A stretch of DNA of 64,000 nucleotides from an uncultured Gammaproteobacteria bacterium. GTDB taxonomy: Bacteria > Patescibacteriota > Microgenomatia > UBA10105 > UBA927. The first letter of the stretch is position 1. Every line of letters starts with the position of its first letter. The notes under the pieces are model-generated. The model did no database searches, was not told where the DNA came from, and saw only the letters and a program-made list of their open reading frames with translations. The DNA is taken from positions 2,068 to 66,067 of the forward strand of contig CAZKLT010000002.1 in NCBI GenBank assembly GCA_964553825.1, in the 5' to 3' direction. Both the position numbers and the translations under genes were made by a program. This document shows, in pieces, positions 2,853 through 52,623 of the stretch.

Positions 2853-3172
2853 CTCTTGAACTTGTTAACGTGCATCAGGAATGCACGAACACACTCCCCG
2901 AGTATGGGAAGCGGTCATGCTCTCTTGATTCCTTTTTGTCTTTCTGCAAATTCGTCCTTTCGGACTCATCAGTACGGACACACATCCGTAGTTTGCAGAG
3001 GAAAGGATACGGGTGGCTCAGGTGACGTCGGGTTCAATCGACATACATATACACTGAACGACCAGCATCCTCAGGGCCATACTGGCACCTGCATCGCCTG
3101 TCTCACGACGGCAATGTCCCCCGGAGGACCTTACGTGCATCCTCGAACTATTCACGTTCAAGAGTAGTTCCA
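2853..3172. repeat. 320-bp direct repeat, copy 2
   Basis: Identical to 1069-1388 with an offset of 1784 bp. It begins 15 nt after the pspA stop codon on the minus strand. It occupies the pspA-to-TPM intergenic region. Confidence 0.9.
2942..3000 (-). ncRNA. hammerhead-ribozyme-like motif, copy 2
   Basis: Identical sequence to copy 1 (offset 1784). The putative cleavage site C17 is at 2991. Confidence 0.4.
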
Positions 3173-3187
3173 ATGCAAATCTGCCTG

Positions 3188-3874
3188 CTATGCGCCCTTC
3201 TTGAGGGAGGCTTTCAGGGCGATGATATCGGCGCGCGCCTTTGCCACGGCATCGGTATTTCCCATGGCGTCGGAGATGGAGCCGACCACGCGCTTGTGGC
3301 GCTGATGTGCACGGCGATTCTTTTCCAGAATCTTCCCGCCGTAATCATCGAGCCCCTTGGTCTTACCAACCACTGCCTGAGCACCTTCCATGGCATCGGT
3401 GGACGCTTCGACCGCCTTGGTATCTTCCTTGGCTTCTTCGAGTTCCTTCACGCGCGCCACACCCTGCTCATACAGCATGGTGAGGAATTTGATGCATTCA
3501 TCATTGTCCGCGAACTCCGCTTCCTTGGCGGCGAGTCTCTCTTCGCGTTTCTTGATTTCTTCATCAAGTGCGTTGAATTGAACGCGGAGGAGCTCCGCAT
3601 CCTTGTCGTTGTTCTCGTCGTCGTCCAGCAGGAGAGCCTTCACATCACGGTCGAGCGCCGTTCTCTGCGGGCGGGCGGTCTTGAGGTATTTCCTCAGGTC
3701 GCCGATTGCAACGGTCACCGCATCCTGCACATTGTACATGCGCTCGCGCGCGCGATACAGGTCACGGACGCGCTGTTTGAGGACGGGGATGTCGAAAATT
3801 TCCATTAGAGCATCCATGCCCTCATTGAGGATGCCGAGCGAGAGCAGACGTGCCTTTTGGGCTGTTGTATCCAT
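3188..3874 (-). CDS. pspA: PspA/IM30 (Vipp1/LiaH) family membrane-stress protein
   Basis: 228 aa. Long charged coiled-coil. N-terminal MDALMEIFDIPVLKQRVRDLYRARERM and overall charge periodicity are typical of PspA. Confidence 0.6.
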   Translation of the reverse strand: MDTTAQKARLLSLGILNEGMDALMEIFDIPVLKQRVRDLYRARERMYNVQDAVTVAIGDLRKYLKTARPQRTALDRDVKALLLDDDENNDKDAELLRVQFNALDEEIKKREERLAAKEAEFADNDECIKFLTMLYEQGVARVKELEEAKEDTKAVEASTDAMEGAQAVVGKTKGLDDYGGKILEKNRRAHQRHKRVVGSISDAMGNTDAVAKARADIIALKASLKKGA

Positions 3875-4140
3875 ACGATTTTCTCACTTTCTACTAGTTG
3901 AATTGAAATTTTTTCGTGCTTTCGAACAAACTACGTACCTTGCCTTATTGGAACGGTTCACCTCCTGTGGTGTGAAAAAATGAAATTTTGAGACGCACAA
4001 ACGTAAGAGAAGAGCTCTCCTACCTCGCGTGCGTCCCAAACGCATGGAACCATACACTACTCTTGAGTTTTAAAGAGCGATGCTTCCAACGGAGTGAAAA
4101 TTATAGGGCGCAAATGCCCCGCACCTTCATACAGCGGAAA

Positions 4141-4190
4141 CTGGAGGATTGTAGCATTTTTTTAGGGAACAGTCAAAAACTATGGGGTAT
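4141..4190 (-). promoter_or_regulatory. sigma70-like promoter for pspA: TTGACT, 17-nt spacer, TACAAT, with a shared upstream motif TAATACCCCATAG
   Basis: The minus strand reads TTAATACCCCATAGTTTTTGACT gttccctaaaaaaatgc TACAAT. The leader to the pspA ATG is about 260 nt. Confidence 0.5.
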
Positions 4191-4198
4191 TAAAACGG

Positions 4199-4245
4199 TA
4201 CCAGACGGCGTAGCACGAAAACATAACATGTGACTACGCCATCTG
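4199..4245 (-). terminator. putative intrinsic terminator after the 4298-5089 gene
   Basis: 13-bp stem (ccagacggcgtag / ctacgccatctgg, one mismatch) with a 20-nt loop. On the minus strand it is followed by taccgtttta. Confidence 0.35.
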
Positions 4246-4297
4246 GATTTGGCGGATAATCTGCAGGATACCGTTTTTATTGGAGGGCGGGAGCGCA

Positions 4298-5089
4298 TCA
4301 CTCCATGTTGAATTCATTCTCCACGAACACCTCGTCCCAGAAATCCATGATGCCATCATTGACTTTCCAGGCGATGAATCCATACACGATGAGTACCAGA
4401 ATGGCGAGGAGAAAAATTCCCAGTTGCGCGAGAATCTTCACCCAATCACCGTCTCCCGAGGAGGAACTGGAGCGCGAACTGCGCCGGGTTGTGGACGATG
4501 TCCTGTTGCTTGACACGGGCATGGGAACGGGCATCGCCATCACGTTACTGGAGCGGGAACTTGCCTTGGCTTTGGATGATGAGCGGGTCGATGCGCGGTC
4601 CGACAACGACGGTTTTTGACCCGTCTGGAACGGATTCCAGCCCTGACCGTTGATGTTAATCAGGGTCGTGTTGGTCGGCCGCCTTGACCGCTCCTGAAAC
4701 TCATCCCAATGTTCATAATCCGGCCGGGCGCTCCCAAACTTGCGCTTGCTGTAGGTAACGAAAATCCCCCACACCACAATGGCTGACGCCACGTTGAAGC
4801 CGGGAACCCAGACCATCCACCAGCGGTAGGGACCAATAAATGCGTCTGCCATGTCGCGCATGCCGGGCAGAAATGCATCCAGCCCCAGAAGCGTTCCGAG
4901 TGTCAGGATCACCAGCGCTACCACCGTGTTGACATACTTGGTGGCTTGAACAAGGTAGTACATCACGGACGATCCGCCTTCGTCCTTGATGACTTCCGAC
5001 TCGGTCTGCACGGGGCCGTGCAGACTGTCGCTCAGCAGAATCAGTACGATTGCGCCGAGCACGGGGAAAAGATAACCATATTCCATTGT
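4298..5089 (-). CDS. hypothetical membrane protein with a Ser/Arg-rich low-complexity linker
   Basis: ATG (MEYGYLF) with an AGGAG RBS 8 nt upstream. Several TM segments. The long upstream extension in the ORF track lacks an RBS. Confidence 0.6.
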   Translation of the reverse strand, partial: TMEYGYLFPVLGAIVLILLSDSLHGPVQTESEVIKDEGGSSVMYYLVQATKYVNTVVALVILTLGTLLGLDAFLPGMRDMADAFIGPYRWWMVWVPGFNVASAIVVWGIFVTYSKRKFGSARPDYEHWDEFQERSRRPTNTTLININGQGWNPFQTGQKPSLSDRASTRSSSKAKASSRSSNVMAMPVPMPVSSNRTSSTTRRSSRSSSSSGDGDWVKILAQLGIFLLAILVLIVYGFIAWKVNDGIMDFWDEVFVENEFNME

Positions 5090-13071: not shown

Positions 13072-13635
13072 ATGAAACAACCGATCGTACTTACGTATTC
13101 ATTGCTCTGTATCGCGCTCATCATGGGAATGGCCGCAGGCTATGCCCTTTCCCCCGGCTATCCTGACCAAATGCTCCAAGAAAAATCCATGAGTTTGGGC
13201 CCTGTTGATCGTTGGTTTGATGCACGGTATATTGATGCGATGGCGGCTCATCACCGAGGCGCGATGCTTCTTGCCCAGCAGGCAAAAGGTCAAAGCACGC
13301 GCCACGAAATCCTGGGCCTGGCACAGGAAATCCTTACCAATGAGCCGAAGCTTATCGAGGAACTGTACGGCTGGAAACGCGCATGGTACAAAGACAACCG
13401 TCAAGCCAAGGATCCGATAGTCGCGAATCTTGCAACCTATGACGAAAAATTTGATCTTCGATTTCTTAATGCACTTATTGCCCATCACGAAGCGGGTATC
13501 GCCATGACGCAGGAAACCCGCATGAAATCATCAAACAAGGACGTACTTAACAATGCGGATGCGGTTGAAAATTTTCTCAGAACAACAATGGGTACGCTCA
13601 AAGAGTGGCGAAAAGCCTGGTATCAGGTGGAATAA
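13072..13635 (+). CDS. DUF305 family protein
   Basis: Two HH-containing helices (MAAHHRGAMLLAQ, LIAHHEAGIAMTQ). Confidence 0.7.
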   Translation: MKQPIVLTYSLLCIALIMGMAAGYALSPGYPDQMLQEKSMSLGPVDRWFDARYIDAMAAHHRGAMLLAQQAKGQSTRHEILGLAQEILTNEPKLIEELYGWKRAWYKDNRQAKDPIVANLATYDEKFDLRFLNALIAHHEAGIAMTQETRMKSSNKDVLNNADAVENFLRTTMGTLKEWRKAWYQVE

Positions 13636-13638
13636 CCT

Positions 13639-15930
13639 ATGACAGAAACAACACAAACCTTTACAGTTCGCGGCATGCACTGCGCAAGCTGCAGCACCCT
13701 GATCAAACGACGGCTGGGCAAACTCTCTGGCGTAACACATGCTGATGTTTCCTATGCGGCAGAAACGGCGTCCGTCACGTTTAATCCACAACACGTTGGC
13801 GTGGATGCTATGAATGCAGAAATCGGGAAATTAGGATACCATCTTACTTCCACAGCGCAGTCTCACCCGAAACAGATACCAACCCATGGGAATGATCATG
13901 CAGCGCATACCGGCATGACACAAACAGCAGACGAGAAGCAGGCCGAGCTTCAGCAACTCAAAGAGAAAACTGCGTTTATTTTTCCATTGGCACTGTTGAT
14001 TTTTGCGGTAATGATTTGGGATATCGCAGCCATGTTTTCCTGGCTTCCTCCGTTCCCTATTCCCATGGCGGTATTTAATCCTATTGCTTTTGCTATTGCC
14101 TCTGTTGCGTTGTTTTGGACCGGCAAACCATACATTGATGCGGTGGGCAGGTTTATCCGGTACCGCGCGGCAAATATGGACACGCTTGTTGGTATCGGGA
14201 CATTAACCGCCTACCTGTATAGCGCAGCGTTTCTCCTCTTCCCTCAGATACACCGTTTTCTCAGTGTCCCTGAGGGACTCTATTTTGATGTGACGATTGT
14301 GGTTATTGGGTTCATCACCCTCGGAAAATTCTTAGAAGCACGCTCAAAACTCCAGACCGGTGAAGCCATTGAAAAACTTATCCATTTATCTGCAAAAAGT
14401 GCACTCGTTCTGAGAAACGGGAAGGAAATGGAAATCCCCGTTGAGGAGGTTCTCGTTGGAGATATTCTTATTATTAAACCCGGGCAAAAGATTCCCGTAG
14501 ACGCCACGATCACACGGGGCACCACTGCAATCGACGAATCTATGATCACGGGTGAACCGCTTCCGGTTGATAAGAAACCCGGTGACACCATTATTGGTGC
14601 GACCATCAATTCCTATGGTTCGATCCAAGCGACGGCAATCAAGGTTGGCAGCGATACCATGCTCGCGCACATTATTCAGATGGTTCGCGATGCCCAGAGC
14701 TCCAAAGCGCCGATTGAACGATTGGCTGACACCGTTTCTTCCGTCTTTGTTCCGGTCATTCTCGTCTTATCCATCCTGACGCTTGTATTCTGGTTTTTCA
14801 TGGGAAATATTTCCCTGGGCATTCTCTCGTTTGTTGGAATCCTTGTTATCGCATGTCCGTGCGCCATGGGACTGGCAACCCCGACTGCGATCATCGTGGG
14901 AGTAGGAAAAGCCGCCGAGCAGGGCATCCTTATCAAGAACGCGGAAAGCCTGGAGAAACTCTCCTCCGTTTCAACCATCGTTCTGGATAAAACGGGAACA
15001 ATTACGGAAGGCAAACCGTCGGTTACAGACATTACGCCGGTTGCTGCAAGGGGGAAATCTCGCGTACTTTCGCTTCTGGCATCGCTTGAGAACCTCTCAG
15101 AACACCCGCTGGCGCATGCAATCGTGCATAAGGCAAAAGAGCAGAACCTTCCCCTCTCTCCCGTTTCACGCTTTACGGCGATAAGCGGGAAGGGCCTTGC
15201 GGGGGATATTCAGAGAAAGACCTATTATGCCGGCAACACCAAGCTTGCCTCCGATCTGGGTATTTCCTGGGACAAAGCGATTGTCGATGCGTTTGCCAGT
15301 GAAGGGAAAACACCCATACTTCTCATGAGCAAAACTGATCTATTGGCATATGTGGCGCTTGCTGACACCTTAAAAAAGAACGTAAAAGAAACCATGCAGG
15401 ACCTGCACCGTATGCATCTGACCGTCACGATGCTTACCGGTGACTCTGAAAAAACAGCGCGGGCGATCGCTAGACAGGCAGGCATCGATACGGTTATTGC
15501 TGAAGTACTTCCTGCCGACAAAGCCAGTGAAATCAAGAAGCTTCAGACGCAGGGGCAACGGGTCGTCATGGTAGGAGACGGTATCAATGATGCTCCTGCC
15601 CTCGCCACCGCCGATGTTGGCATTGCCATGGGGACAGGCACCGATGTAGCGATTGAATCGGCGGGCATAACACTGCTGGGCGGCACTATTACCAAACTTC
15701 CGCGCGCGGTTGCCCTCGCACGGCTTACGATGCGCACGATCAAACAAAATCTCTTTTGGGCGTTCTTCTACAACGTCGTGAGTATTCCTGTTGCTGCCGG
15801 AGTGCTGTATCCCATTTTAGGCATTATGCTTAATCCTGCCATTGCCGGTGCGGCCATGGCCCTTAGTTCCGTATCTGTCGTTGCCAATTCGCTTCGCCTT
15901 AAATCCGCCCGTATCACTAATCCCTATTGA
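13639..15930 (+). CDS. copA: copper-translocating P1B-type ATPase
   Basis: N-terminal HMA domain (GMHCASCS). CPC, DKTGTIT and GDGINDAPAL motifs. Confidence 0.95.
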   Translation: MTETTQTFTVRGMHCASCSTLIKRRLGKLSGVTHADVSYAAETASVTFNPQHVGVDAMNAEIGKLGYHLTSTAQSHPKQIPTHGNDHAAHTGMTQTADEKQAELQQLKEKTAFIFPLALLIFAVMIWDIAAMFSWLPPFPIPMAVFNPIAFAIASVALFWTGKPYIDAVGRFIRYRAANMDTLVGIGTLTAYLYSAAFLLFPQIHRFLSVPEGLYFDVTIVVIGFITLGKFLEARSKLQTGEAIEKLIHLSAKSALVLRNGKEMEIPVEEVLVGDILIIKPGQKIPVDATITRGTTAIDESMITGEPLPVDKKPGDTIIGATINSYGSIQATAIKVGSDTMLAHIIQMVRDAQSSKAPIERLADTVSSVFVPVILVLSILTLVFWFFMGNISLGILSFVGILVIACPCAMGLATPTAIIVGVGKAAEQGILIKNAESLEKLSSVSTIVLDKTGTITEGKPSVTDITPVAARGKSRVLSLLASLENLSEHPLAHAIVHKAKEQNLPLSPVSRFTAISGKGLAGDIQRKTYYAGNTKLASDLGISWDKAIVDAFASEGKTPILLMSKTDLLAYVALADTLKKNVKETMQDLHRMHLTVTMLTGDSEKTARAIARQAGIDTVIAEVLPADKASEIKKLQTQGQRVVMVGDGINDAPALATADVGIAMGTGTDVAIESAGITLLGGTITKLPRAVALARLTMRTIKQNLFWAFFYNVVSIPVAAGVLYPILGIMLNPAIAGAAMALSSVSVVANSLRLKSARITNPY

Positions 15931-15972
15931 TCTTGGCTTCCTAAGCGCGCACAATGACATTAAGGAGGGACT

Positions 15973-16383
15973 ATGGACAGCAAATCAATGCTATACGGCA
16001 TCATCGGACTGTTTGTTGGTGCGGGTATAACCATGTATCTCGCCAGCTGGGCGGTCAATTCCGGAAATACGGATATGATGAGTACGATGGGCATGCGTGG
16101 TATTCAGACACCATCAACACAACCGGCGCCGCACGGTAATATGGGAATGGGCTCAAGTATGGATGACATGATGAAATCTCTTGATGGAAAAACGGGAGAC
16201 GCGTTTGACAAAGCATTCCTGGATGCGATGATCGTGCACCACGAGGGCGCAATCGATATGGCGAAAATTGCTCAAAATGGCGCAGAGCACGCTGAAATCA
16301 AGACACTTGCCGGAGAGATTATCACTGCGCAAACGAAAGAAATCCAGATGATGCGCCAGTGGCAAACACAGTGGGGATACTAA
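15973..16383 (+). CDS. DUF305 family protein with a Met-rich N-terminal region
   Basis: MIVHHEGAIDMAK motif. Met-rich stretch MMSTMGMRG...MGMGSSMDDMM. Confidence 0.7.
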   Translation: MDSKSMLYGIIGLFVGAGITMYLASWAVNSGNTDMMSTMGMRGIQTPSTQPAPHGNMGMGSSMDDMMKSLDGKTGDAFDKAFLDAMIVHHEGAIDMAKIAQNGAEHAEIKTLAGEIITAQTKEIQMMRQWQTQWGY

Positions 16384-16389
16384 TCCCGA

Positions 16390-16836
16390 TTACTCTACGA
16401 TAAGCGTGCCCACCATACCGTTTGCACGGTGCTGACCCACGCTACAGTAGAATTCATACGTCCCCGCTTTGTCAGCGACGAACGTGAGCGTGTCGGTCTC
16501 CCCATTTTTAATCTGCTTTGTTGCCGCGTCAAATTCATCAACAACCCAGTCATGCGGCATTTTCCCGCTGTTTGTTAAATTGATAGTCACCGTGTCTCCC
16601 TCTTTTACGGTGATGGTTTTCTGATCATACCCGAACTCAAAACTATCAATCGTGAATTCTTTTCCTGCCTCGGGCACAGCCGCGTCTGAACCAACCATCA
16701 TTTCATTTCCCGTTGGCCCCTTGGTACCACCGGCGGGCATCGTACTCTCAAGAGAAGCCGGTGACTTTTGGGTCATGAAGTAATATGCGCCACCAACGAC
16801 TACCACAAGAAGAAAGACCATGAGTATTTTATTCAT
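16390..16836 (-). CDS. secreted cupredoxin (plastocyanin/azurin-like blue copper protein)
   Basis: Copper ligands H..C..H..M in PHDWVV ... YEFYCSVGQHRANGM. N-terminal TM/signal segment. Confidence 0.8.
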   Translation of the reverse strand: MNKILMVFLLVVVVGGAYYFMTQKSPASLESTMPAGGTKGPTGNEMMVGSDAAVPEAGKEFTIDSFEFGYDQKTITVKEGDTVTINLTNSGKMPHDWVVDEFDAATKQIKNGETDTLTFVADKAGTYEFYCSVGQHRANGMVGTLIVE

Positions 16837-16974
16837 ATACCGTTACCCTACTATATCGCTTCGTCTTTGTAAAGCGTATTACAAAATCTTATTCATAAAT
16901 TTACCACCTCTTGGTGTCCGGGAGCACTGATACCAAACGCGGAAGATGATTTGCTGGTAGAGTTACTATCTCCC

Positions 16975-17601
16975 ATGAAAACAACACCACTTGCCTCATC
17001 TCACCCGCATCCTGCATTTGCCCCGCGGGAAACAATACCCGAACCCTTGCGCGAGCATTCGTCCGGAAAAAAAAGTCACACACCGCTTTGGCAGGTCTTT
17101 CTTCTACTCGTGGCGCTGTTTTTTTTGGGAGCCAACACAATACTCTTTGCCTATCTGAATTGGAAAACAAAACTCCTTGTGGATGAGAAGAACGTACCCA
17201 CCATAACACCCACAGCATTTCGCACGCCAACCCCTACTTCAACCCCGTACCCCCTACCACAGGGAATACAATCATTCAACATCAATTACAGCACATCAGC
17301 GACAGGTCCAAAACTGGAAAAGGTTTTTGTCGATCCGTTTGACCCACAGCTCGATATGCACCAACGTATTACAATCGCCGCCTCTCATACTCACCCCATC
17401 GGTGCAGTCGCCCTCACGTTGTCATCCGATCACAAAGAAGCCACATATAGCATGGAGCGGATAAGCGGTACTGACACACAGGGTGTTTGGCAAACGACAA
17501 TTACTACCGACGATACGCACTTGTACCGCTACTACGTGTTTTTTAGCATTGAGAGCCAAACTGGTTCCTTCAACGGAGGACTCACGTTTCGCGCATACTA
17601 A
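16975..17601 (+). CDS. hypothetical membrane-anchored protein (Pro/Thr-rich linker)
   Basis: ORF with one TM segment. I recognise no domain. The start codon is uncertain. Confidence 0.4.
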   Translation: MKTTPLASSHPHPAFAPRETIPEPLREHSSGKKSHTPLWQVFLLLVALFFLGANTILFAYLNWKTKLLVDEKNVPTITPTAFRTPTPTSTPYPLPQGIQSFNINYSTSATGPKLEKVFVDPFDPQLDMHQRITIAASHTHPIGAVALTLSSDHKEATYSMERISGTDTQGVWQTTITTDDTHLYRYYVFFSIESQTGSFNGGLTFRAY

Positions 17602-17603
17602 CA

Positions 17604-18356
17604 ATGAAACATGTCTCAATTAGCTTAATCATCTGCGCATTTTTCCTAATATTCGCTGCACAAAAGCATCCGGCGTTCGCAGAAACCTGCTCCCCGCCTC
17701 AAGCCGGAAATCTTGAACTAACTGCCGATTGTTCATTTGCAGGCATTGTCAACGGCGTGGATTCGGGCACCGGTGATACAAACGATGCAATTCTTACCAT
17801 CAGTGCGGGCATTTTAACCATCATGCCAGGACAGACGATCGCCTTCGGTTCGCTTATCCTCAACGGCGGCGCTATCGCTATTCCAGCAAACAGTTCACTT
17901 CTCTTGCCGGGTGCTTCGCTCTGGATGACCGATTCGGATGCTGATGGATTCCCCGAAAGCACCGATCAAATTGCCGCCACAGAGAATCCGGGCCTCGGGA
18001 CTAGGCGCAGAGCAGGACTCAACGATATAAACACCGCAGATTGCTATGATGGAAATCCGGATGTCTTTGTGGGTCAAACGCTGTTTTTTTCCGTCGACCG
18101 CGGCGACGGGAGTTTTGACTACGACTGTGATGGCGACATCATCAAGCAGCGGGATATCTGCTCCTGTGGGTGCACCAATCTATGCCTTGCTATTCCGGAA
18201 TGTGTCGCCACCGATGTCACGGCAGAGGCAACGGATTGCGGAGCTACCGGAATAAATGCTGGACCCGTAGACTGCACGCGGTCAGACGATATCTACGGGA
18301 ATTGTGTTGCCTGTACAGGCTCGGGGACCACGGAAACCACTATGACATGCCGTTAA
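17604..18356 (+). CDS. secreted Cys-rich hypothetical protein
   Basis: Signal peptide. C-terminal region with 14 Cys (CSCGCTNLC..CVACTG). Its start is 2 nt after the upstream stop. Confidence 0.5.
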   Translation: MKHVSISLIICAFFLIFAAQKHPAFAETCSPPQAGNLELTADCSFAGIVNGVDSGTGDTNDAILTISAGILTIMPGQTIAFGSLILNGGAIAIPANSSLLLPGASLWMTDSDADGFPESTDQIAATENPGLGTRRRAGLNDINTADCYDGNPDVFVGQTLFFSVDRGDGSFDYDCDGDIIKQRDICSCGCTNLCLAIPECVATDVTAEATDCGATGINAGPVDCTRSDDIYGNCVACTGSGTTETTMTCR

Positions 18357-18990
18357 ATTGCGTCATGCCCTGCTCATCGACTTCCTTCTCAAGGGCGGAA
18401 AGATTCGGTATAACAATCATGCGTCTGCTGTATTCTATGAGTCTTTTTTTCTTGAGCGCCTCAATCTGAAGACTTGCGGTTTCTCGCGTTGTTCCAATCC
18501 ACGCGGCTATCTCTTTATGAGTCAGGGGCAAGGATAACTTTCCAGTCTGATTCTCACCGAAGTTCTTGGCGTAATACAAGAGCAAAAGGACAACCTTGTG
18601 GTACGCCGATTCAAAAACTAAGTGTTCCATGCGCATAAGCACCCCGCTTAAACCATGAAGAATACGGGAAAATACACGCTCAGTTTCTCCTGGATTTTGC
18701 TTCAGGAATCGTCGAACCTCTTCTCTGGGTGCGCGCAAAATTTCAACCGGCGTCAATGCCTCAAAATAATACCGATTCGGCGTGTCATTAATCACCCAGG
18801 TCATCGGGAAAAAACTTCCGGGTCGGTATACATGCACTACGAGCATGTCTCCGTTCTGCGCAATGAAACTTTGCCGCACAAATCCTTTCTTCAGATACAG
18901 AACTCCTGCCGGAGGGTCCCCTGCGCGAAGCACCACTTCGCCTTTAGCATAGGTAAGTTTGGTAAATTGGGAGAAAAAGACGTCAATCAT
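18340..18990 (-). CDS. Crp/Fnr-family transcriptional regulator
   Basis: cNMP-binding beta-barrel followed by a C-terminal HTH (TRETASLQIEALKKKRLI). Confidence 0.8.
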   Translation of the reverse strand: MIDVFFSQFTKLTYAKGEVVLRAGDPPAGVLYLKKGFVRQSFIAQNGDMLVVHVYRPGSFFPMTWVINDTPNRYYFEALTPVEILRAPREEVRRFLKQNPGETERVFSRILHGLSGVLMRMEHLVFESAYHKVVLLLLYYAKNFGENQTGKLSLPLTHKEIAAWIGTTRETASLQIEALKKKRLIEYSRRMIVIPNLSALEKEVDEQGMTQFNGMS

Positions 18991-19073
18991 GCCTTTACTA
19001 TACACCGTTTTTACGAAAACGGTGTAATCTATCGTACATATTCTTGATAGGGTACTTCAGGTACAATAGGACT

Positions 19074-19511
19074 ATGTCAAAATCAACTTCATTGAATCGC
19101 GCTATTTTCATTCTCTCTCTTTTGGGTATTATTATTGCCATATATGTCCTCCAGGGATTTATCCGCCAAGCACCGATTGTCTGCGTGAATACGGGCTGTG
19201 AACTCGTGCGAAAAAATCCGGCGAGTTATCTATTCGGCGTCGTCCCTGTCCCCGCAGTCGGACTTGTGGGATACACCATTCTTGCCATCTGCGCATTCCT
19301 GCGTACAACCCAGCTTACCCAAAAAACAGCGACACTCGTAACGCGCATCATGCTTGGCATGGGTGCTTTTGGCGTTGCGTTTGTGGCGTGGTTTACTTAT
19401 ACGGAGATATTCGTTATTCGGGGAATCTGCACCTGGTGTGCTATATCGGCCGTGAATATGGTTGTTGTTTTCGTCCTGACACTGAAGGGACTGAAGAAAG
19501 GAACGATATGA
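19074..19511 (+). CDS. vitamin K epoxide reductase (VKOR) family protein
   Basis: CVNTGC loop cysteines and CTWC active-site motif. 4-5 TM helices. Confidence 0.7.
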   Translation: MSKSTSLNRAIFILSLLGIIIAIYVLQGFIRQAPIVCVNTGCELVRKNPASYLFGVVPVPAVGLVGYTILAICAFLRTTQLTQKTATLVTRIMLGMGAFGVAFVAWFTYTEIFVIRGICTWCAISAVNMVVVFVLTLKGLKKGTI

Positions 19512-20143
19512 AACTCACAGACGAATCCAAAATTCTCCTGGGTATTCTGAGCGCAACCGTACTTCTCGTTGTCGGCGCAATTGTGTATTACTCCCGACCT
19601 ACTCCCCCAACGCCAGTGACTCCCATGGAGATCCTTGCCCCCGCAGACAGAAGTTATCGTGGTCCTGTAGATGCTCCGGTGGTGCTGGTCGAATTTTCGG
19701 ATTTCCAATGTCCTGCCTGTCTTGCGGCCAAACCGGTCGTCGATGCCATACTCCAAAAGTACCCCCAGGAAGTCCGATTCATCTACCGGCACTTCCCGCT
19801 TGACTCACATGTATATGGCAGGAAGGCTGCAGAGGCTGCAGAAGCGGCCAAGCAGCAGGGAAAATTCTGGGAAATGTACGACGGCTTGTTTGCCAATCAG
19901 GCATCGCTTTCTGACGAAACCGTCCGCAATCTTGCCCAATCCCTGGGTCTTCACATGGATACATTCAATCGCGACTGGAAAGACGCCACTATTGCAGCAT
20001 TCGTATCCGCGGATCGCGCAGACGGCGAAAAAGTTACCATCTTAGGGACGCCAACATTCTTTCTGAATGGGAAAAAACTTGCACCAGTCAGCTGGAGCGA
20101 CCTGATGGTTGAAGTGGAAAACGCTATCAATTCTGGTCGCTAG
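19508..20143 (+). CDS. DsbA-like thiol:disulfide oxidoreductase
   Basis: FSDFQCPAC (CPxC) motif. N-terminal TM anchor. Its start overlaps the VKOR stop (ATGA). Confidence 0.85.
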   Translation: MKLTDESKILLGILSATVLLVVGAIVYYSRPTPPTPVTPMEILAPADRSYRGPVDAPVVLVEFSDFQCPACLAAKPVVDAILQKYPQEVRFIYRHFPLDSHVYGRKAAEAAEAAKQQGKFWEMYDGLFANQASLSDETVRNLAQSLGLHMDTFNRDWKDATIAAFVSADRADGEKVTILGTPTFFLNGKKLAPVSWSDLMVEVENAINSGR

Positions 20144-20197
20144 TTCCCTCTCCCGCTCATTGACGGGCATAAAATTCAACGACTACAATCAAGAGGC

Positions 20198-21406
20198 ATG
20201 TTATATTTTGCCGAACTATCAGGGAAGCGGGTTACAGACGCGGGAGGAAAACACATCGGCAATGTAGCCGATCTGGCATTCCTGGCCTCCGGACAACCGC
20301 TTATTACGAAACTGACGATCCGCAACAACAGGGAATTTCTCAATGTCTCCCTGGCATCCGTTGCGTCTTTCAATGGCGGCATCCGACTGAAAGCAGGCTT
20401 TGAAGCGACCCAAGTCGACGAGAATGAACTTTCCATCCACACACACCTTCTGGACCAGCAAATCATCGATATCAAGGGAAACAAGGTCGTTCGCGTTAAT
20501 GACGTTGCGATACAGGAAAAACCCTATCTCGTGATTGCCGGAGTGGATGTGGGAATTTTGGGCATCGCTCGCTGGTTCCATTTGGAGCAATTTCTCAATC
20601 GTGGCCTTGCACGGTTTGGCAAAATCGTAACCAGCGACTTTCTTTCCTGGGAAAATATCCAGCCGGTTGAACTTTCGCGCGGAAAAGTTGTCCTGCGCCG
20701 CGAAGAAACCAAGCTCACGAAACTGCGACCTGAAGATTTGGCGGACCATCTGGAACGGCTTTCCCTCAAAAACCTCACAAAAATACTTGATCTGCTCCCG
20801 GATGAATATGAAGCAGACGTGGTCCAGAATCTCAATATCAGCCACCAACGAATGCTTTTCCGTTCAATTAAAGCGGAACACGCAGCGCAAATCCTCAGCC
20901 AAGCCGACCCCGACGAAGCAGTCGACATTCTGCTTACGCTTCCGCCCAAAAGACGGGAAGCAATCCTCGCCTATGTCCACGAAGAAGCCAAATCCCCTAT
21001 CAACCACCTCCTGGCCCTCTCAAAGACCGATATCGGTGAACTTGCTACCAGTGATTTCTTCACGGCAACTCCGCAGGAAAGTGCAGGAAATGTCAGACGT
21101 CGCATCAAGCATGATACGACAGCTGCCGATCCGCTGGTATACGTCTACGTTATAAATAAGAATAAGGAGCTCGTCGGCGTCTGCAATCTCCACGAACTTA
21201 TTCTGCAGGATGCGGAAGTGCCGATCTACAAATTCATGATTCCAAACGTTGTTCCCGTCTATCTGACGACGCCCCCCCAAATCGCGCTTACGAAAATGAC
21301 AAAATATAAAATTTACGCTCTACCGATTATTAATGACAAGCGGCATATTCTTGGCGTCGTCACGATGGAAGATATTTTAGAAACGCTGCAACATAAACTT
21401 ATATGA
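20198..21406 (+). CDS. soluble PRC-barrel + MgtE-N + CBS-pair protein (MgtE cytoplasmic region with no transmembrane transporter domain)
   Basis: AAGAGG RBS. Two PRC-like segments, an MgtE_N-like helical region, and two CBS motifs. No TM helices. Confidence 0.65.
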   Translation: MLYFAELSGKRVTDAGGKHIGNVADLAFLASGQPLITKLTIRNNREFLNVSLASVASFNGGIRLKAGFEATQVDENELSIHTHLLDQQIIDIKGNKVVRVNDVAIQEKPYLVIAGVDVGILGIARWFHLEQFLNRGLARFGKIVTSDFLSWENIQPVELSRGKVVLRREETKLTKLRPEDLADHLERLSLKNLTKILDLLPDEYEADVVQNLNISHQRMLFRSIKAEHAAQILSQADPDEAVDILLTLPPKRREAILAYVHEEAKSPINHLLALSKTDIGELATSDFFTATPQESAGNVRRRIKHDTTAADPLVYVYVINKNKELVGVCNLHELILQDAEVPIYKFMIPNVVPVYLTTPPQIALTKMTKYKIYALPIINDKRHILGVVTMEDILETLQHKLI

Positions 21407-22647
21407 TCGAGTGGATTCATCAACAGAAAAGAAGAATATTCGCAATGCTTGCCATCATCGGGCCTGGACTTATTACGGCATTTGCTGACAATGACGCTGC
21501 GGGCGTTTCCACCTATTCCGTCTCGGCGGCGGCATTCGGCTACGCAATACTCATCGTCACCATTCCCATGACCATACTGCTTGCCATCACACAGGAAATC
21601 GGCTCACGGATAGCCATTGTTTCCCAAAAAGGCCTTGCTGACCTCATCCGCGAACGCTACGGCGTGCGCGTCGCGCTTGGCATTTTTGGACTCATGTTTC
21701 TCGTAAATCTTGCCGTCGTCGTCATGAACATTAGCGGAATTAAATCCGCCCTCGCACTCTTTGGCTTGCCTGCTGCTGCGCTCATGCCTCTGATTGTCGC
21801 CGGACTGTATTTCTTTGTCGTACTGACAAAGTACAATACGATCGAACGGTTCTTTTTTATCCTTATCGGGTTTTATCTGACGTATGCGGTTTCCGCTTTT
21901 CTTTCCAAGCCTGACTGGGGTGCGGCAACACAGGCGCTTTTTATCCCCAACGGTGAACTGACGCCAAAATTTATTTACACCGCTATTGCCGTCATCGGGG
22001 CGACCATTACCCTTTGGGGGCAATTTTTCATCAATTCCTATGTCAAGGATAAACGGTTAACGGTCGAACATCTGAAATATAGCAGACTTGAAGTCTATCT
22101 GGGAGCCCTTTTAACGAACTTGTTTTCGTTTTTTATGATGGTTGCCGTCATTGCCACACTGTACGTCCGCAATATCCCGATAACCGATGCAGCAGGGGCA
22201 TCTATTGCCATCCGCCCATTTGCAGGTGAATTTGCGGGCATCCTGTTTGGCCTGGGTCTGTTTATTGCGGGGACACTTGGATGTATCATCGTCTCCCTTT
22301 CTACTGCGTATGCATTCTCAGAATTTTTCGGTTACTCAGGAAGTCTTGATGAAAATTTCCGCAAAAGCCGCCTTTTTTATACGATGCTACTGATCCAGCT
22401 TGTTTTAGGGACGCTCATTGTCATGTCTCCCAAAGTGTCGCTTTTTTCCATAACACTTATCGGCAACTTCATCAACGGCGGCGTTCTGCCGGTCGTTCTG
22501 TATTTTCTGTATCAGTTTGCGAATAACGAAAGGATCATGGGTGAATACACAAATACAAAAACACAGAATGTTATCCTCGCCGGATCTGCGGTCTTCATCT
22601 CAGCGGCCACGCTTTTTGGAATTGCGGGACAACTACTGGGCCTCTAA
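21403..22647 (+). CDS. NRAMP-family transporter homologue with non-canonical metal-site motifs
   Basis: GPGLITAFADNDAAG (TM1) and IGATITLWGQF (TM6) align to the NRAMP DPGN and MPH motifs but diverge from them. Its start overlaps the upstream stop (ATGA). Confidence 0.75.
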   Translation: MIEWIHQQKRRIFAMLAIIGPGLITAFADNDAAGVSTYSVSAAAFGYAILIVTIPMTILLAITQEIGSRIAIVSQKGLADLIRERYGVRVALGIFGLMFLVNLAVVVMNISGIKSALALFGLPAAALMPLIVAGLYFFVVLTKYNTIERFFFILIGFYLTYAVSAFLSKPDWGAATQALFIPNGELTPKFIYTAIAVIGATITLWGQFFINSYVKDKRLTVEHLKYSRLEVYLGALLTNLFSFFMMVAVIATLYVRNIPITDAAGASIAIRPFAGEFAGILFGLGLFIAGTLGCIIVSLSTAYAFSEFFGYSGSLDENFRKSRLFYTMLLIQLVLGTLIVMSPKVSLFSITLIGNFINGGVLPVVLYFLYQFANNERIMGEYTNTKTQNVILAGSAVFISAATLFGIAGQLLGL

Positions 22648-23324
22648 AGATAAAGCGCCACGGTCATATTCCAGAAGATATGAACCAGAATCGGGGCAAC
22701 GAGCGACCTGGTGGTTGCAAATAATATGCTATTGGCAAACGCCAAAATAAAATCGGTCACGAAGAACAGAATAAGGGTCGATCCCGTCAGTTTATTGATC
22801 GTCACGAGCATAGGAACATGAAGACAAAGGAATAAAACAGCGCCGATAAAGGCGGCCTTCATGAGGCTTCCCGTTTTTTCGTGGAGTCGGTTAAACACAA
22901 AGCCGCGGCTTAATAACTCTTCGGAAAATGCCGTTGCCAGAGAGACAATGATAAGAAAGAATCCATATTCCCGGAATGCGGCAATCGGATTAACGTCAAC
23001 ACTTCCGTATTTCAGCGCGTGTGCAAGGAGTCCCTCAATGGCAAATACCATGCCAAACCCAAGCCCAATGTAGATGCTCTTAAAAAAGTTTTCTCCGGTA
23101 AGACCGATCGAAGCCAAGCTTCTTCCCTCTTTCTTGAGGACATACCAAAGAACCGGCGCCACGAACACAAGCGGTTTGAACACAAATTCATCCGCCCACT
23201 CGGGAACACTCACAAAATACCGGTACAGACTCCACGCCAAAAGAATCCACGCCCACAGTCGGTAAATAGGCTCAGGTGAAGATGTCTCAGAAGCGGTAGA
23301 TTTCGTTCCCATTACTATTACCAT
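22644..23324 (-). CDS. CPBP-family intramembrane metalloprotease (CAAX protease-like)
   Basis: EELLSRG, FxxxH and HxxxN motifs. Confidence 0.75.
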   Translation of the reverse strand: MVIVMGTKSTASETSSPEPIYRLWAWILLAWSLYRYFVSVPEWADEFVFKPLVFVAPVLWYVLKKEGRSLASIGLTGENFFKSIYIGLGFGMVFAIEGLLAHALKYGSVDVNPIAAFREYGFFLIIVSLATAFSEELLSRGFVFNRLHEKTGSLMKAAFIGAVLFLCLHVPMLVTINKLTGSTLILFFVTDFILAFANSILFATTRSLVAPILVHIFWNMTVALYL

Positions 23325-48451: not shown

Positions 48452-48587
48452 AGGCGGGTGAGGCAGGCTTTGAACCTGCGTTCTTGGTTTTGGAGACCAA
48501 GGTCCTTCCAACTGAACGACTCACCCAAAAGGAAGAGAAGGATACGATGCAGTGTGAACCTGACGGCTCAAGTGATTCTCTCTTCCA

Positions 48588-48666
48588 TGGAGGCGGCGAG
48601 GTAGGACTTGAACCTACTCCCTCCGGCTTTGGGTACCGGCGCTCATCCTAATGAGCCATCTCGCCC
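48588..48666 (-). tRNA. tRNA-like gene, probable anticodon CCA (Trp), with irregular acceptor/T-stem register and C33
   Basis: Minus strand: GGCGAGA-UG-GCUC(AUUAGGAU)GAGC-G-CCGGU(ACCCAAA)GCCGG-AGGGA-GUAGG(UUCAAGU)CCUAC-CUCGCCGCCUCCA. Clear D, anticodon and T arms. The acceptor pairing is off by one. Confidence 0.5.
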
Positions 48667-50671: not shown

Positions 50672-50744
50672 TGGTTGCGGGGCCGGGAATCGCACCCGGT
50701 CTAGAAGATTATGAGCCTTCTGTGCGGCTTTACACTACCCCGCG
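50672..50744 (-). tRNA. tRNA with anticodon CAU and a C1-A72 mismatch (initiator-like), non-canonical D and T loops
   Basis: CGCGGGG-UA-GUGU(AAAGCC)GCAC-A-GAAGG(CUCAUAA)UCUUC-UAGA-CCGGG(UGCGAUU)CCCGG-CCCCGCA-A-CCA. 73 nt, CCA encoded. The D loop lacks GG. The T loop has UGCG instead of UUCG. Confidence 0.55.
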
Positions 50745-52550: not shown

Positions 52551-52623
52551 TGCCAGCGGCAGGGATCGAACCTGCGACCTATGCCTTATGAAGACACCGC
52601 TACTACCACTGAGCTACGCTGGC
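52551..52623 (-). tRNA. tRNA-Met (CAU), elongator-type
   Basis: GCCAGCG-UA-GCUC(AGUGGUAG)UAGC-G-GUGUC(UUCAUAA)GGCAU-AGGUC-GCAGG(UUCGAUC)CCUGC-CGCUGGC-A. Perfect 7-bp acceptor stem. G1-C72. Confidence 0.85.

Follow-up and report, generated by a model that had tools for sequence, protein, structure and literature searches.

A two-gene operon from a Patescibacterial genome pairs an NRMT-type divalent-cation importer with a soluble MgtE-like accessory protein

How does a cell that takes up Mg2+ through a transporter of the NRMT type avoid being overloaded with it? Four classes of bacterial Mg2+ importers are known, with the NRMTs as the fourth, and since their transport of Mg2+ is H+-independent (PMC8806188), the avoidance of Mg2+ overload becomes a question in its own right. 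A conserved partner of these transporters is the obvious candidate for restraining them. Here we consider such a pair in a stretch of 64,000 nucleotides, hereafter the window (positions 2,068 to 66,067 of the forward strand of contig CAZKLT010000002.1, assembly GCA_964553825.1), from an uncultured bacterium deposited under the Gammaproteobacteria and placed by GTDB in the Patescibacteriota. The locus is a two-gene operon of the Patescibacteria (Candidate Phyla Radiation, CPR), which encodes an NRMT-type divalent-cation importer and, upstream of it, a soluble MgtE-like accessory protein (the partner). It is a new Patescibacterial example of a known and widespread operon type. Its elements, in window coordinates, are:

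20160..20189, + strand: promoter-like site TTGACG-18-TACAAT, with 10/12 consensus matches, in the 54-bp gap 5' of the partner gene
20198..21406, + strand: partner gene, 402 amino acids, soluble, with a PRC-barrel region, MgtE_N and a CBS pair
21403..21406, + strand: ATGA overlap, four bases shared by the partner stop codon and the transporter start codon
21403..22647, + strand: transporter gene, 414 amino acids, an SLC11/NRAMP-related transporter of the NRMT clade

The overlap of stop and start codons, already pointed out in a preliminary description of this DNA, was found at 21403-21406 and depends on the start assigned to the transporter. The NCBI annotation of the contig begins the protein at Met15 (window 21445 versus 21403), giving a product of 400 amino acids. 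The first 14 residues are kept in relatives that are 85-87% identical, as is the ATGA overlap in the close relatives L081 and L083, and Met15 is not kept, so that the long start at 21403, 42 nt upstream of the NCBI start, is the better supported. Purifying selection on both genes is strong, with pN of 0.09-0.13 and pS of 0.73-0.85 (the proportions of non-synonymous and synonymous differences); these values are given instead of a dN/dS ratio because the synonymous sites are saturated. Open reading frames (ORFs) on the opposite strand over both genes (e.g. 20219..20848, − strand) were considered spurious, given the homology and the purifying selection on the + strand. The promoter-like site would leave nearly zero leader upstream of the partner gene, and no convincing terminator was detected after 22647 in the scan for transcription signals. 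This was a consensus scan only and its site counts were about those of shuffled sequence, so we give it little weight.

The affiliation of the transporter was assessed with family profiles and solved structures. The protein matches the Pfam Nramp family over its full length (PF01566, E 1e-67) and a hydropathy scan displays at least 10 hydrophobic segments. Its top solved relative is EleNRMT (7qia), the Mg2+/Mn2+ transporter of Eggerthella lenta, with E 4e-68 over residues 7-413, whereas MntH proteins are matched at only ~1e-14 and the NCBIfam MntH model gives 80 bits against a cut-off of 430. The NRMT signature consists of DxxG in helix 1 and TxxA/T in helix 6, which replace DxxN and AxxM (PMC8806188). 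The preliminary description had read the motifs ADNDAAG and GATITLW in place of the canonical DPGN and MPH, and had taken such substitutions as the kind that marks Mg2+-transporting NRAMP relatives. Alignment to EleNRMT and DraNramp agrees with the first statement, the canonical residues not being conserved, and the published signature agrees with the second. The possibility that a canonical MntH had simply been misaligned is thereby ruled out, since both alignments return the same motifs. On transmembrane helices 1 and 6 (TM1 and TM6) these are:

21493..21504, + strand: TM1 metal-site motif D31-A-A-G34, the NRMT DxxG in place of canonical DPGN
22000..22017, + strand: TM6 metal-site motif A200-T-I-T203-L-W, replacing canonical AxxM-P-H, where the NRMT consensus is T-x-x-T/A-P/A-W

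We compared these positions in 200 relatives, namely 80 genomic loci (34-66% identical, retrieved by scanning an NRMT alignment against one genome per species) and the 120 closest database homologues. The TM1 Asp and Gly are invariant in 200/200. The position of EleNRMT Thr224 is Thr in all 80 loci and in 118 of the 120 homologues; it is Ala200 in the window, and beyond the window Ala appears only in the NCBI copy of this same protein and in one unrelated sequence (P0234). The codon at 22000-22002 is GCG in the window and ACG or ACC, both for Thr, in the nearest relatives. The Mg2+-type metal site first proposed for this protein holds for TM1 and only partly for TM6, where the second position of the TxxA/T signature fits (T203) and the first, Ala against Thr in 198/200 relatives, does not. 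As the T224A mutant of EleNRMT kept Mn2+ transport and lost detectable Mg2+ transport (PMC8806188), Mg2+ specificity is not to be assumed for the window protein. A200 may reflect either a genuine change of selectivity or a mistake in the assembly of this metagenome-derived genome, and such an Ala at the Thr224 position of the transporter was not found in the literature searched. The window protein, like EleNRMT, lacks the proton-pathway histidines of TM6b (W205 and N211 stand in their place), and the CPR subclade also departs from the NRMT consensus at EleNRMT E133 (N/D), P228 (A/L) and Q379 (N). Judging by its sequence, the transporter is of the NRMT clade by ancestry and a variant by its functional signature. 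The ion transported is most likely Mg2+ and/or Mn2+, and the window copy, given the Thr-to-Ala change, may lean towards Mn2+.

What, then, is the protein encoded upstream? Both Pfam and hydropathy agree with the architecture originally proposed, a PRC-barrel followed by MgtE_N and a CBS pair, with no pore: the partner has no match to the MgtE membrane domain (PF01769) in Pfam and no real transmembrane segment in the hydropathy scan, and its C-terminus lies only 4 residues past the CBS pair. In agreement with this, the NCBIfam mgtE model (TIGR00400) gives 115 bits against a cut-off of 233 and is matched at profile positions 23-253 only, which correspond to the cytoplasmic part. The domains are:

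20198..20437, + strand: first beta-barrel, PRC-barrel fold, residues ~1-80 (Pfam PRC and fold match)
20447..20650, + strand: second beta-rich region with helices, residues ~84-151
20723..21016, + strand: MgtE_N domain, residues 176-273 (Pfam, E 1e-16)
21050..21394, + strand: CBS pair, residues ~285-399 (two Pfam CBS domains, E 5e-16)

An AlphaFold2 model of the full partner (mean predicted local distance difference test score, pLDDT, of 79) resolves into a beta-rich N-terminal part, an MgtE_N domain made of helices and the CBS pair, and its top solved structural matches are the cytoplasmic domains of MgtE (E 1e-16 to 3e-18). The N-terminal region is less straightforward. Pfam matches PRC weakly over the whole partner; with the scan restricted to residues 1-175, the match reaches 26 bits, against a cut-off of 21.2 bits. 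Residues 1-172 were also modelled separately, which gave confident structure up to residue 85 only (pLDDT 72-95). For this model Foldseek retrieves nothing but PRC-barrel proteins as top PDB matches (CdpB1/B2, MTH1859, the reaction-centre H subunit, RimM and CdvA), at E of only ~2e-3, with a root mean square deviation of 1.4 Å over 68 residues for MTH1859. Given that this model is confident only to residue 85, the fold of the second beta region rests on a second, weak PRC stretch, which Pfam reports when residues 1-175 are scanned, and on the full-length model, whose confidence is lower here. This same region holds the most conserved stretch of the partner across phyla (L85, D86, Q88, D91, R99, V100, N101, D102, D117, R125 and W151), and we propose that residues ~84-151 may form a docking surface.

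To relate the partner to the Mg2+ sensor of MgtE, the experimentally defined Mg2+ ligands of Thermus thermophilus MgtE (TtMgtE; PMC5882242) were aligned to 66 full-length partners from many phyla:

Mg4, TtMgtE D91: D239 in the window; Asp in 60/66 partners
Mg4, TtMgtE D247: D392 in the window; Asp in 62/66 partners
Mg6, TtMgtE D95: D243 in the window; Asp in 64/66 partners
Mg7, MgtE E59: D207 in the window; acidic in 49/66 partners, variable in the family
Mg5, MgtE D226: K371 in the window; Asp in 11/66 partners
Mg5, MgtE D250: E395 in the window; acidic in 45/66 partners
Mg2/Mg3, MgtE E258/D259 on the plug helix: no equivalent, as the window protein ends before these positions

Sites Mg1 to Mg3 are absent from the partner because it has neither the plug helix nor the transmembrane pore. 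Closure of MgtE requires Mg2+ at Mg4, Mg5 and Mg6 (PMC5882242). MgtE also has an ATP pocket that includes the stacking Phe227 and Asn203 (PMC5529423), and this pocket is not retained: the Phe227 position is Ile in the window and Leu in 56/66 partners (Leu or Ile in 61/66, Phe in 3/66), and the Asn203 position is variable. Taken together, it is plausible from these residues that the partner is a Mg2+-sensing regulatory subunit.

The preliminary description had made its reading depend on conservation of the gene pair in other genomes. A partner-profile search of the ORFs in the 80 NRMT loci shows a partner adjoining the transporter in 72/80, nearly all of full length and including the PRC region. 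The pairing spans at least 10 phyla, and the phyla of the loci include Patescibacteria, Chloroflexota, Actinomycetota, Firmicutes, Nitrospirota, Omnitrophota, Acidobacteriota and Armatimonadota. In ~66/80 loci the partner lies at most 200 nt upstream on the same strand; the identical 4-base overlap occurs in 11/80 and most of the others have gaps below 35 nt. Unusual positions are few (downstream in 2 loci, on the opposite strand in 1, more than 1.2 kb upstream in 3), and the partner is absent nearby in 7 of the 79 loci that could be assessed. The reverse scan, made with the partner against metagenomes, gave 80 loci, with an NRMT directly downstream in 54 (54/72 assessable). For the remainder, 8 contigs end too soon, 1 has an NRMT at 1.2 kb and 17 have no NRMT in the 1-3 kb of downstream flank. 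Long ORFs at two loci (L053, L054) that might pass for fusions are in a different frame from the partner and were rejected as artefacts of overlapping long ORFs.

The pair is thus conserved and also already known, although it had been supposed at first to be undescribed. In 2014, Shin et al. (PLoS Genet, PMC4072509; all statements attributed to it here come from its passages on these genes) named the NrmT clade and noted that most NrmT genes adjoin a homologue of the MgtE N-terminal cytoplasmic domain, in what they called "mgtE-nramp operons". Their pairs include that of Clostridium acetobutylicum (CA_C0685) and that of Acidobacterium capsulatum (Acp2976/Acp2977), the latter being the one tested with its partner. 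According to the same passages, NrmT genes on their own rescued defects in the transport of Mg2+ or Mn2+; for the partner, cytoplasmic feedback regulation or metal chaperone activity was suggested as speculation (PMC4072509). Likewise, EleNRMT was purified and tested for transport in proteoliposomes, in a paper whose text refers to neither a partner nor a CBS protein (Ramanadane et al., 2022, eLife, PMC8806188). The partner is not mentioned in the later structural and evolutionary papers on NRMTs, and our literature searches returned no later work on it and no paper that joins PRC-barrel and MgtE. Since NRMTs transport without it, the early suggestion of a split two-component transporter stands as far as a regulatory subunit is plausible and fails as far as it implies half of a pore. 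The partner is at most a regulator, and the pair is better described as a transporter and its candidate regulatory subunit.

Some members of this operon type also carry a riboswitch. Among 16 related loci sampled, 7 have M-box aptamers (124-163 bits) upstream of the partner gene: four from Firmicutes, two from Thermoleophilia and one from Chloroflexia, with none in the 3 CPR loci. At the Pelosinus locus (L044) two aptamers stand in tandem upstream of the partner, at 2004-2181 (163 bits) and 2322-2493 (161 bits). Searched with Rfam, the window as a whole gave no riboswitch at gathering score, nor did 18300-20400 give one at E <= 10; the M-box (RF00380) in particular was unmatched at these levels in the window and in the upstream region. 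Indeed, the 54-bp gap with its promoter-like site and almost no leader has no room for an M-box of ~170 nt.

The PRC, MgtE_N and CBS module is not confined to NRMT operons. A search with the N-terminal 170 residues against 1.84 billion representative proteins gave 691 clusters, in which the match is nearly always at the extreme N terminus; most full-length members have 400-440 amino acids, which is the partner architecture. A few proteins of ~600 amino acids continue after PRC, MgtE_N and CBS into an MgtE membrane domain or 4-6 C-terminal hydrophobic segments. Among these MgtE-type proteins, P0317 (598 amino acids) and P0337 (602 amino acids) match the PF01769 membrane domain; P0308, P0328 and P0333 have about 600-620 amino acids. 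Hydrophobic segments at the C terminus number 4-6 in P0317, P0328, P0333 and P0337, and one only in P0308. MgtE channels that carry the PRC module therefore exist, and the module is also joined to a Mg2+ pore, which in the MgtE proteins characterised so far is gated by the N and CBS domains. The free-standing partner most simply reads as the cytoplasmic assembly of such a PRC-MgtE channel minus its pore.

There is also a sister group of partner-type genes, at 13 metagenomic loci (L118, L138, L140, L141, L144, L145, L146, L148, L153, L154, L155, L158 and L160). Their products are 62-68% identical to the NRMT-linked ones and keep the Mg4 and Mg6 aspartates. Each gene is followed within ~35 nt by one for a ~273-residue protein resembling S-adenosylmethionine (SAM) hydroxide adenosyltransferase (SAM_HAT_C, E ~1e-7); at L138, for example, the partner-type gene occupies 3001-4185 and the SAM-HAT-like gene 4220-5044. 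A gene for a D-Ala-D-Ala-ligase-like ATP-grasp protein is often found upstream of these partner genes. As the sister group adjoins a SAM-HAT-like gene instead, the partner may not be dedicated to NRMT. Neither the PRC-MgtE channels nor this SAM-HAT-linked group was found in the literature searched.

How might the partner act on the transporter? The reading that we favour as a whole, if only tentatively, is that the operon combines an NRMT importer with an accessory Mg2+ sensor that provides post-translational feedback inhibition. The accessory protein would bind cytosolic Mg2+ at inter-domain acidic sites equivalent to Mg4 and Mg6 of MgtE, and this binding would shut its N domain onto the CBS domain. 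The closed protein would then dock on the cytoplasmic face of the transporter, perhaps via the PRC region, and docking would restrain an importer that is not coupled to protons, in a post-translational feedback inhibition. By analogy only, one may compare the reaction-centre H subunit, whose PRC domain rests on its membrane partners. The M-box riboswitch would add a further off-switch to the operons of Firmicutes, Thermoleophilia and Chloroflexia; with no riboswitch here, Mg2+ feedback in this genome would depend on the protein sensor alone. In favour of this reading are the identity of the two proteins, their conserved and closely coupled genes, the purifying selection on both, the M-box link in other taxa, the retained residues of the N-CBS clamp and the presence of the same module on MgtE pores; binding, closure and docking are inferred.

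Several observations weigh against feedback inhibition. The plug helix and the Mg2/Mg3 sites, which in MgtE couple the sensor to the pore, are absent from the partner, and the Mg5 ligand D226 is Lys in the window and Asp in just 11 of the 66 partners. An interaction between partner and NRMT is shown neither here nor in the literature, and no partner-NRMT fusions, which would point to a physical complex, were found among the 120 closest transporter homologues, the best 150 representatives of the N-terminal module and the 80 loci. Co-expression of the A. capsulatum partner, the only test reported in the passages of Shin et al., did not change the rescue by NrmT, and that NrmT acted as a Mn2+ importer, rescuing a Mn2+ defect (PMC4072509). 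Moreover, should the finding on EleNRMT T224A apply to the window protein as well, A200 would speak against an efficient transport of Mg2+. These last points lead to another reading, a serious alternative although in our estimate rather unlikely, in which the ion taken up by this copy is Mn2+ or some other transition metal and the partner senses that metal or something else. Besides the Ala at the Thr224 position and the behaviour of EleNRMT T224A, it draws on A. capsulatum NrmT, which has a partner and no M-box and rescued the Mg2+ defect weakly (PMC4072509), on the absence of an M-box at the window pair as well, on the altered E133 and Q379 positions of the CPR subclade, and on neighbouring genes that handle transition metals or redox chemistry (Cu ATPase, cupredoxin, DUF305 proteins, VKOR/DsbA). 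However, the closest relatives (85-87% identical) keep Thr, as do 198/200 relatives, the family fits the Mg2+ signature, and the TxxT motif type of this subclade is common to M-box-linked members. The hydroxyl of T203, at the canonical Met position, might compensate for the loss of Thr, and the change, one base (G/A) in a lone metagenome-assembled genome, could stem from misassembly.

The partner might instead serve something other than inhibition of its neighbour. That it is a positive factor, either a metallochaperone or buffer for the imported ion or an activator at low Mg2+, seems to us improbable. The "metal chaperone activity" raised by Shin et al. (PMC4072509) belongs to this idea, the invariant acidic cluster of the second beta region (D86, D91, D102, D117) could bind metal, and the tight translational coupling suggests matched amounts of both proteins. 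Yet co-expression gave no better Mg2+ rescue in the sole test reported there (PMC4072509), purified EleNRMT transported in liposomes in a study whose paper mentions no partner (PMC8806188), and the residues conserved are those of the inhibitory Mg2+ clamp of MgtE. We also consider it unlikely that the partner serves as a general-purpose sensor, whether for Mg2+ or for an adenosyl ligand, with several clients or a role outside transport, so that its adjacency to NRMT reflects co-regulation. The 13 loci where a related gene precedes a SAM-HAT-like gene with no NRMT within 3 kb, which count against NRMT inhibition as well, would fit such a sensor, as would the 7/79 NRMT loci without a partner nearby. 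CBS pairs commonly bind adenosyl ligands, and MJ0100 with SAM or methylthioadenosine is among the structural matches. Against it stand the lost ATP/adenine pocket of MgtE, with Leu or Ile at the F227 position in 61/66 partners and a variable N203, and the pairing with NRMT across very distant phyla, often with overlapping codons, which is more than co-regulation usually preserves.

Feedback inhibition of NRMT could itself be one case of something broader. One may imagine that PRC, MgtE_N and CBS form a portable Mg2+-sensing gate used on unrelated machines (the MgtE pore, to which it is fused, and the NRMT carrier and the SAM-HAT-like enzyme, beside which it is encoded as a separate protein), which would dock on NRMT via the PRC region and impose a channel-style Mg2+ feedback, the Thr-to-Ala change of the window being a natural selectivity switch. 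We regard this wider proposal as doubtful, albeit conceivable.

The gene pair sits 3' of a copper/redox cluster (window 13072-20143) and is followed by a convergent gene:

13072-13635: DUF305 protein
13639-15930: Cu-type P1B ATPase with an HMA domain
15973-16383: second DUF305 protein
16390-16836, − strand: cupredoxin
18340-19005, − strand: Crp/Fnr-type regulator
19044-19511: VKOR
19508-20143: DsbA-like thioredoxin
22644-23324, − strand: Rce1-like (CPBP) protease, convergent, its end overlapping the transporter stop by 4 bases (22644-22647)
48455-48526, 48594-48665, 50675-50744 and 52551-52623, − strand: four tRNA genes

There is no terminator-like structure between the transporter gene and that of the Rce1-like protease. 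The order VKOR, DsbA, partner, NRMT and Rce1-like protease is common to L081; the sequence of L083 begins at the partner gene and has the same order from there onward.

The window alone adds little to the question of how NRMT import is restrained. It is the comparative data that sharpen the question of what the partner does: the pairing over at least 10 phyla, the retention of the Mg4/Mg6 clamp, the loss of the ATP pocket, the conserved PRC region and the occurrence of the module on MgtE channels. They also ease the design of mutagenesis and complex-reconstitution experiments.

With regard to known systems, the transporter shares with the MntH/NRAMP proteins (DraNramp, ScaDMT, EcoDMT) the PF01566 family, the LeuT fold and the TM1 Asp, and differs from them in having DAAG for DPGN and T-L-W for the M-P-H of TM6, the match being only E ~1e-14. 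It is closer to EleNRMT, with which it has in common the binding-site Asp, Gly for Asn in TM1, the absence of the TM6 Met, Trp for the first TM6b His, and N382. Nevertheless, the two are only ~33% identical in a MAFFT alignment, and EleNRMT T224, A227, P228, E133 and Q379 correspond to A200, T203, L204, N109 and N355 in the window. The partner resembles MgtE (T. thermophilus 2yvx/2yvy; also 2oux and 8gpv) in its N domain and CBS pair, which are homologous in sequence and fold (E 1e-16 to 3e-18), and in the conserved Mg4 ligands D91/D247 and Mg6 ligand D95; it differs in lacking the plug helix and pore and in its extra N-terminal PRC-barrel module of ~170 residues. As for the whole operon, its counterpart is the mgtE-nramp operon, with the same gene order, in which a homologue of the MgtE cytoplasmic domain lies directly upstream of, and co-oriented with, a transporter of the NrmT clade. 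The passages of Shin et al. on these operons mention the MgtE cytoplasmic domain only and not the PRC-barrel module (PMC4072509). In comparison with the operons described there, the window copy comes from the Patescibacteria, has no M-box, like that of A. capsulatum, and begins its TM6 motif with Ala rather than Thr. The likeness extends to the Clostridium muellerianum locus (L057), which has the same full-length partner together with an M-box.

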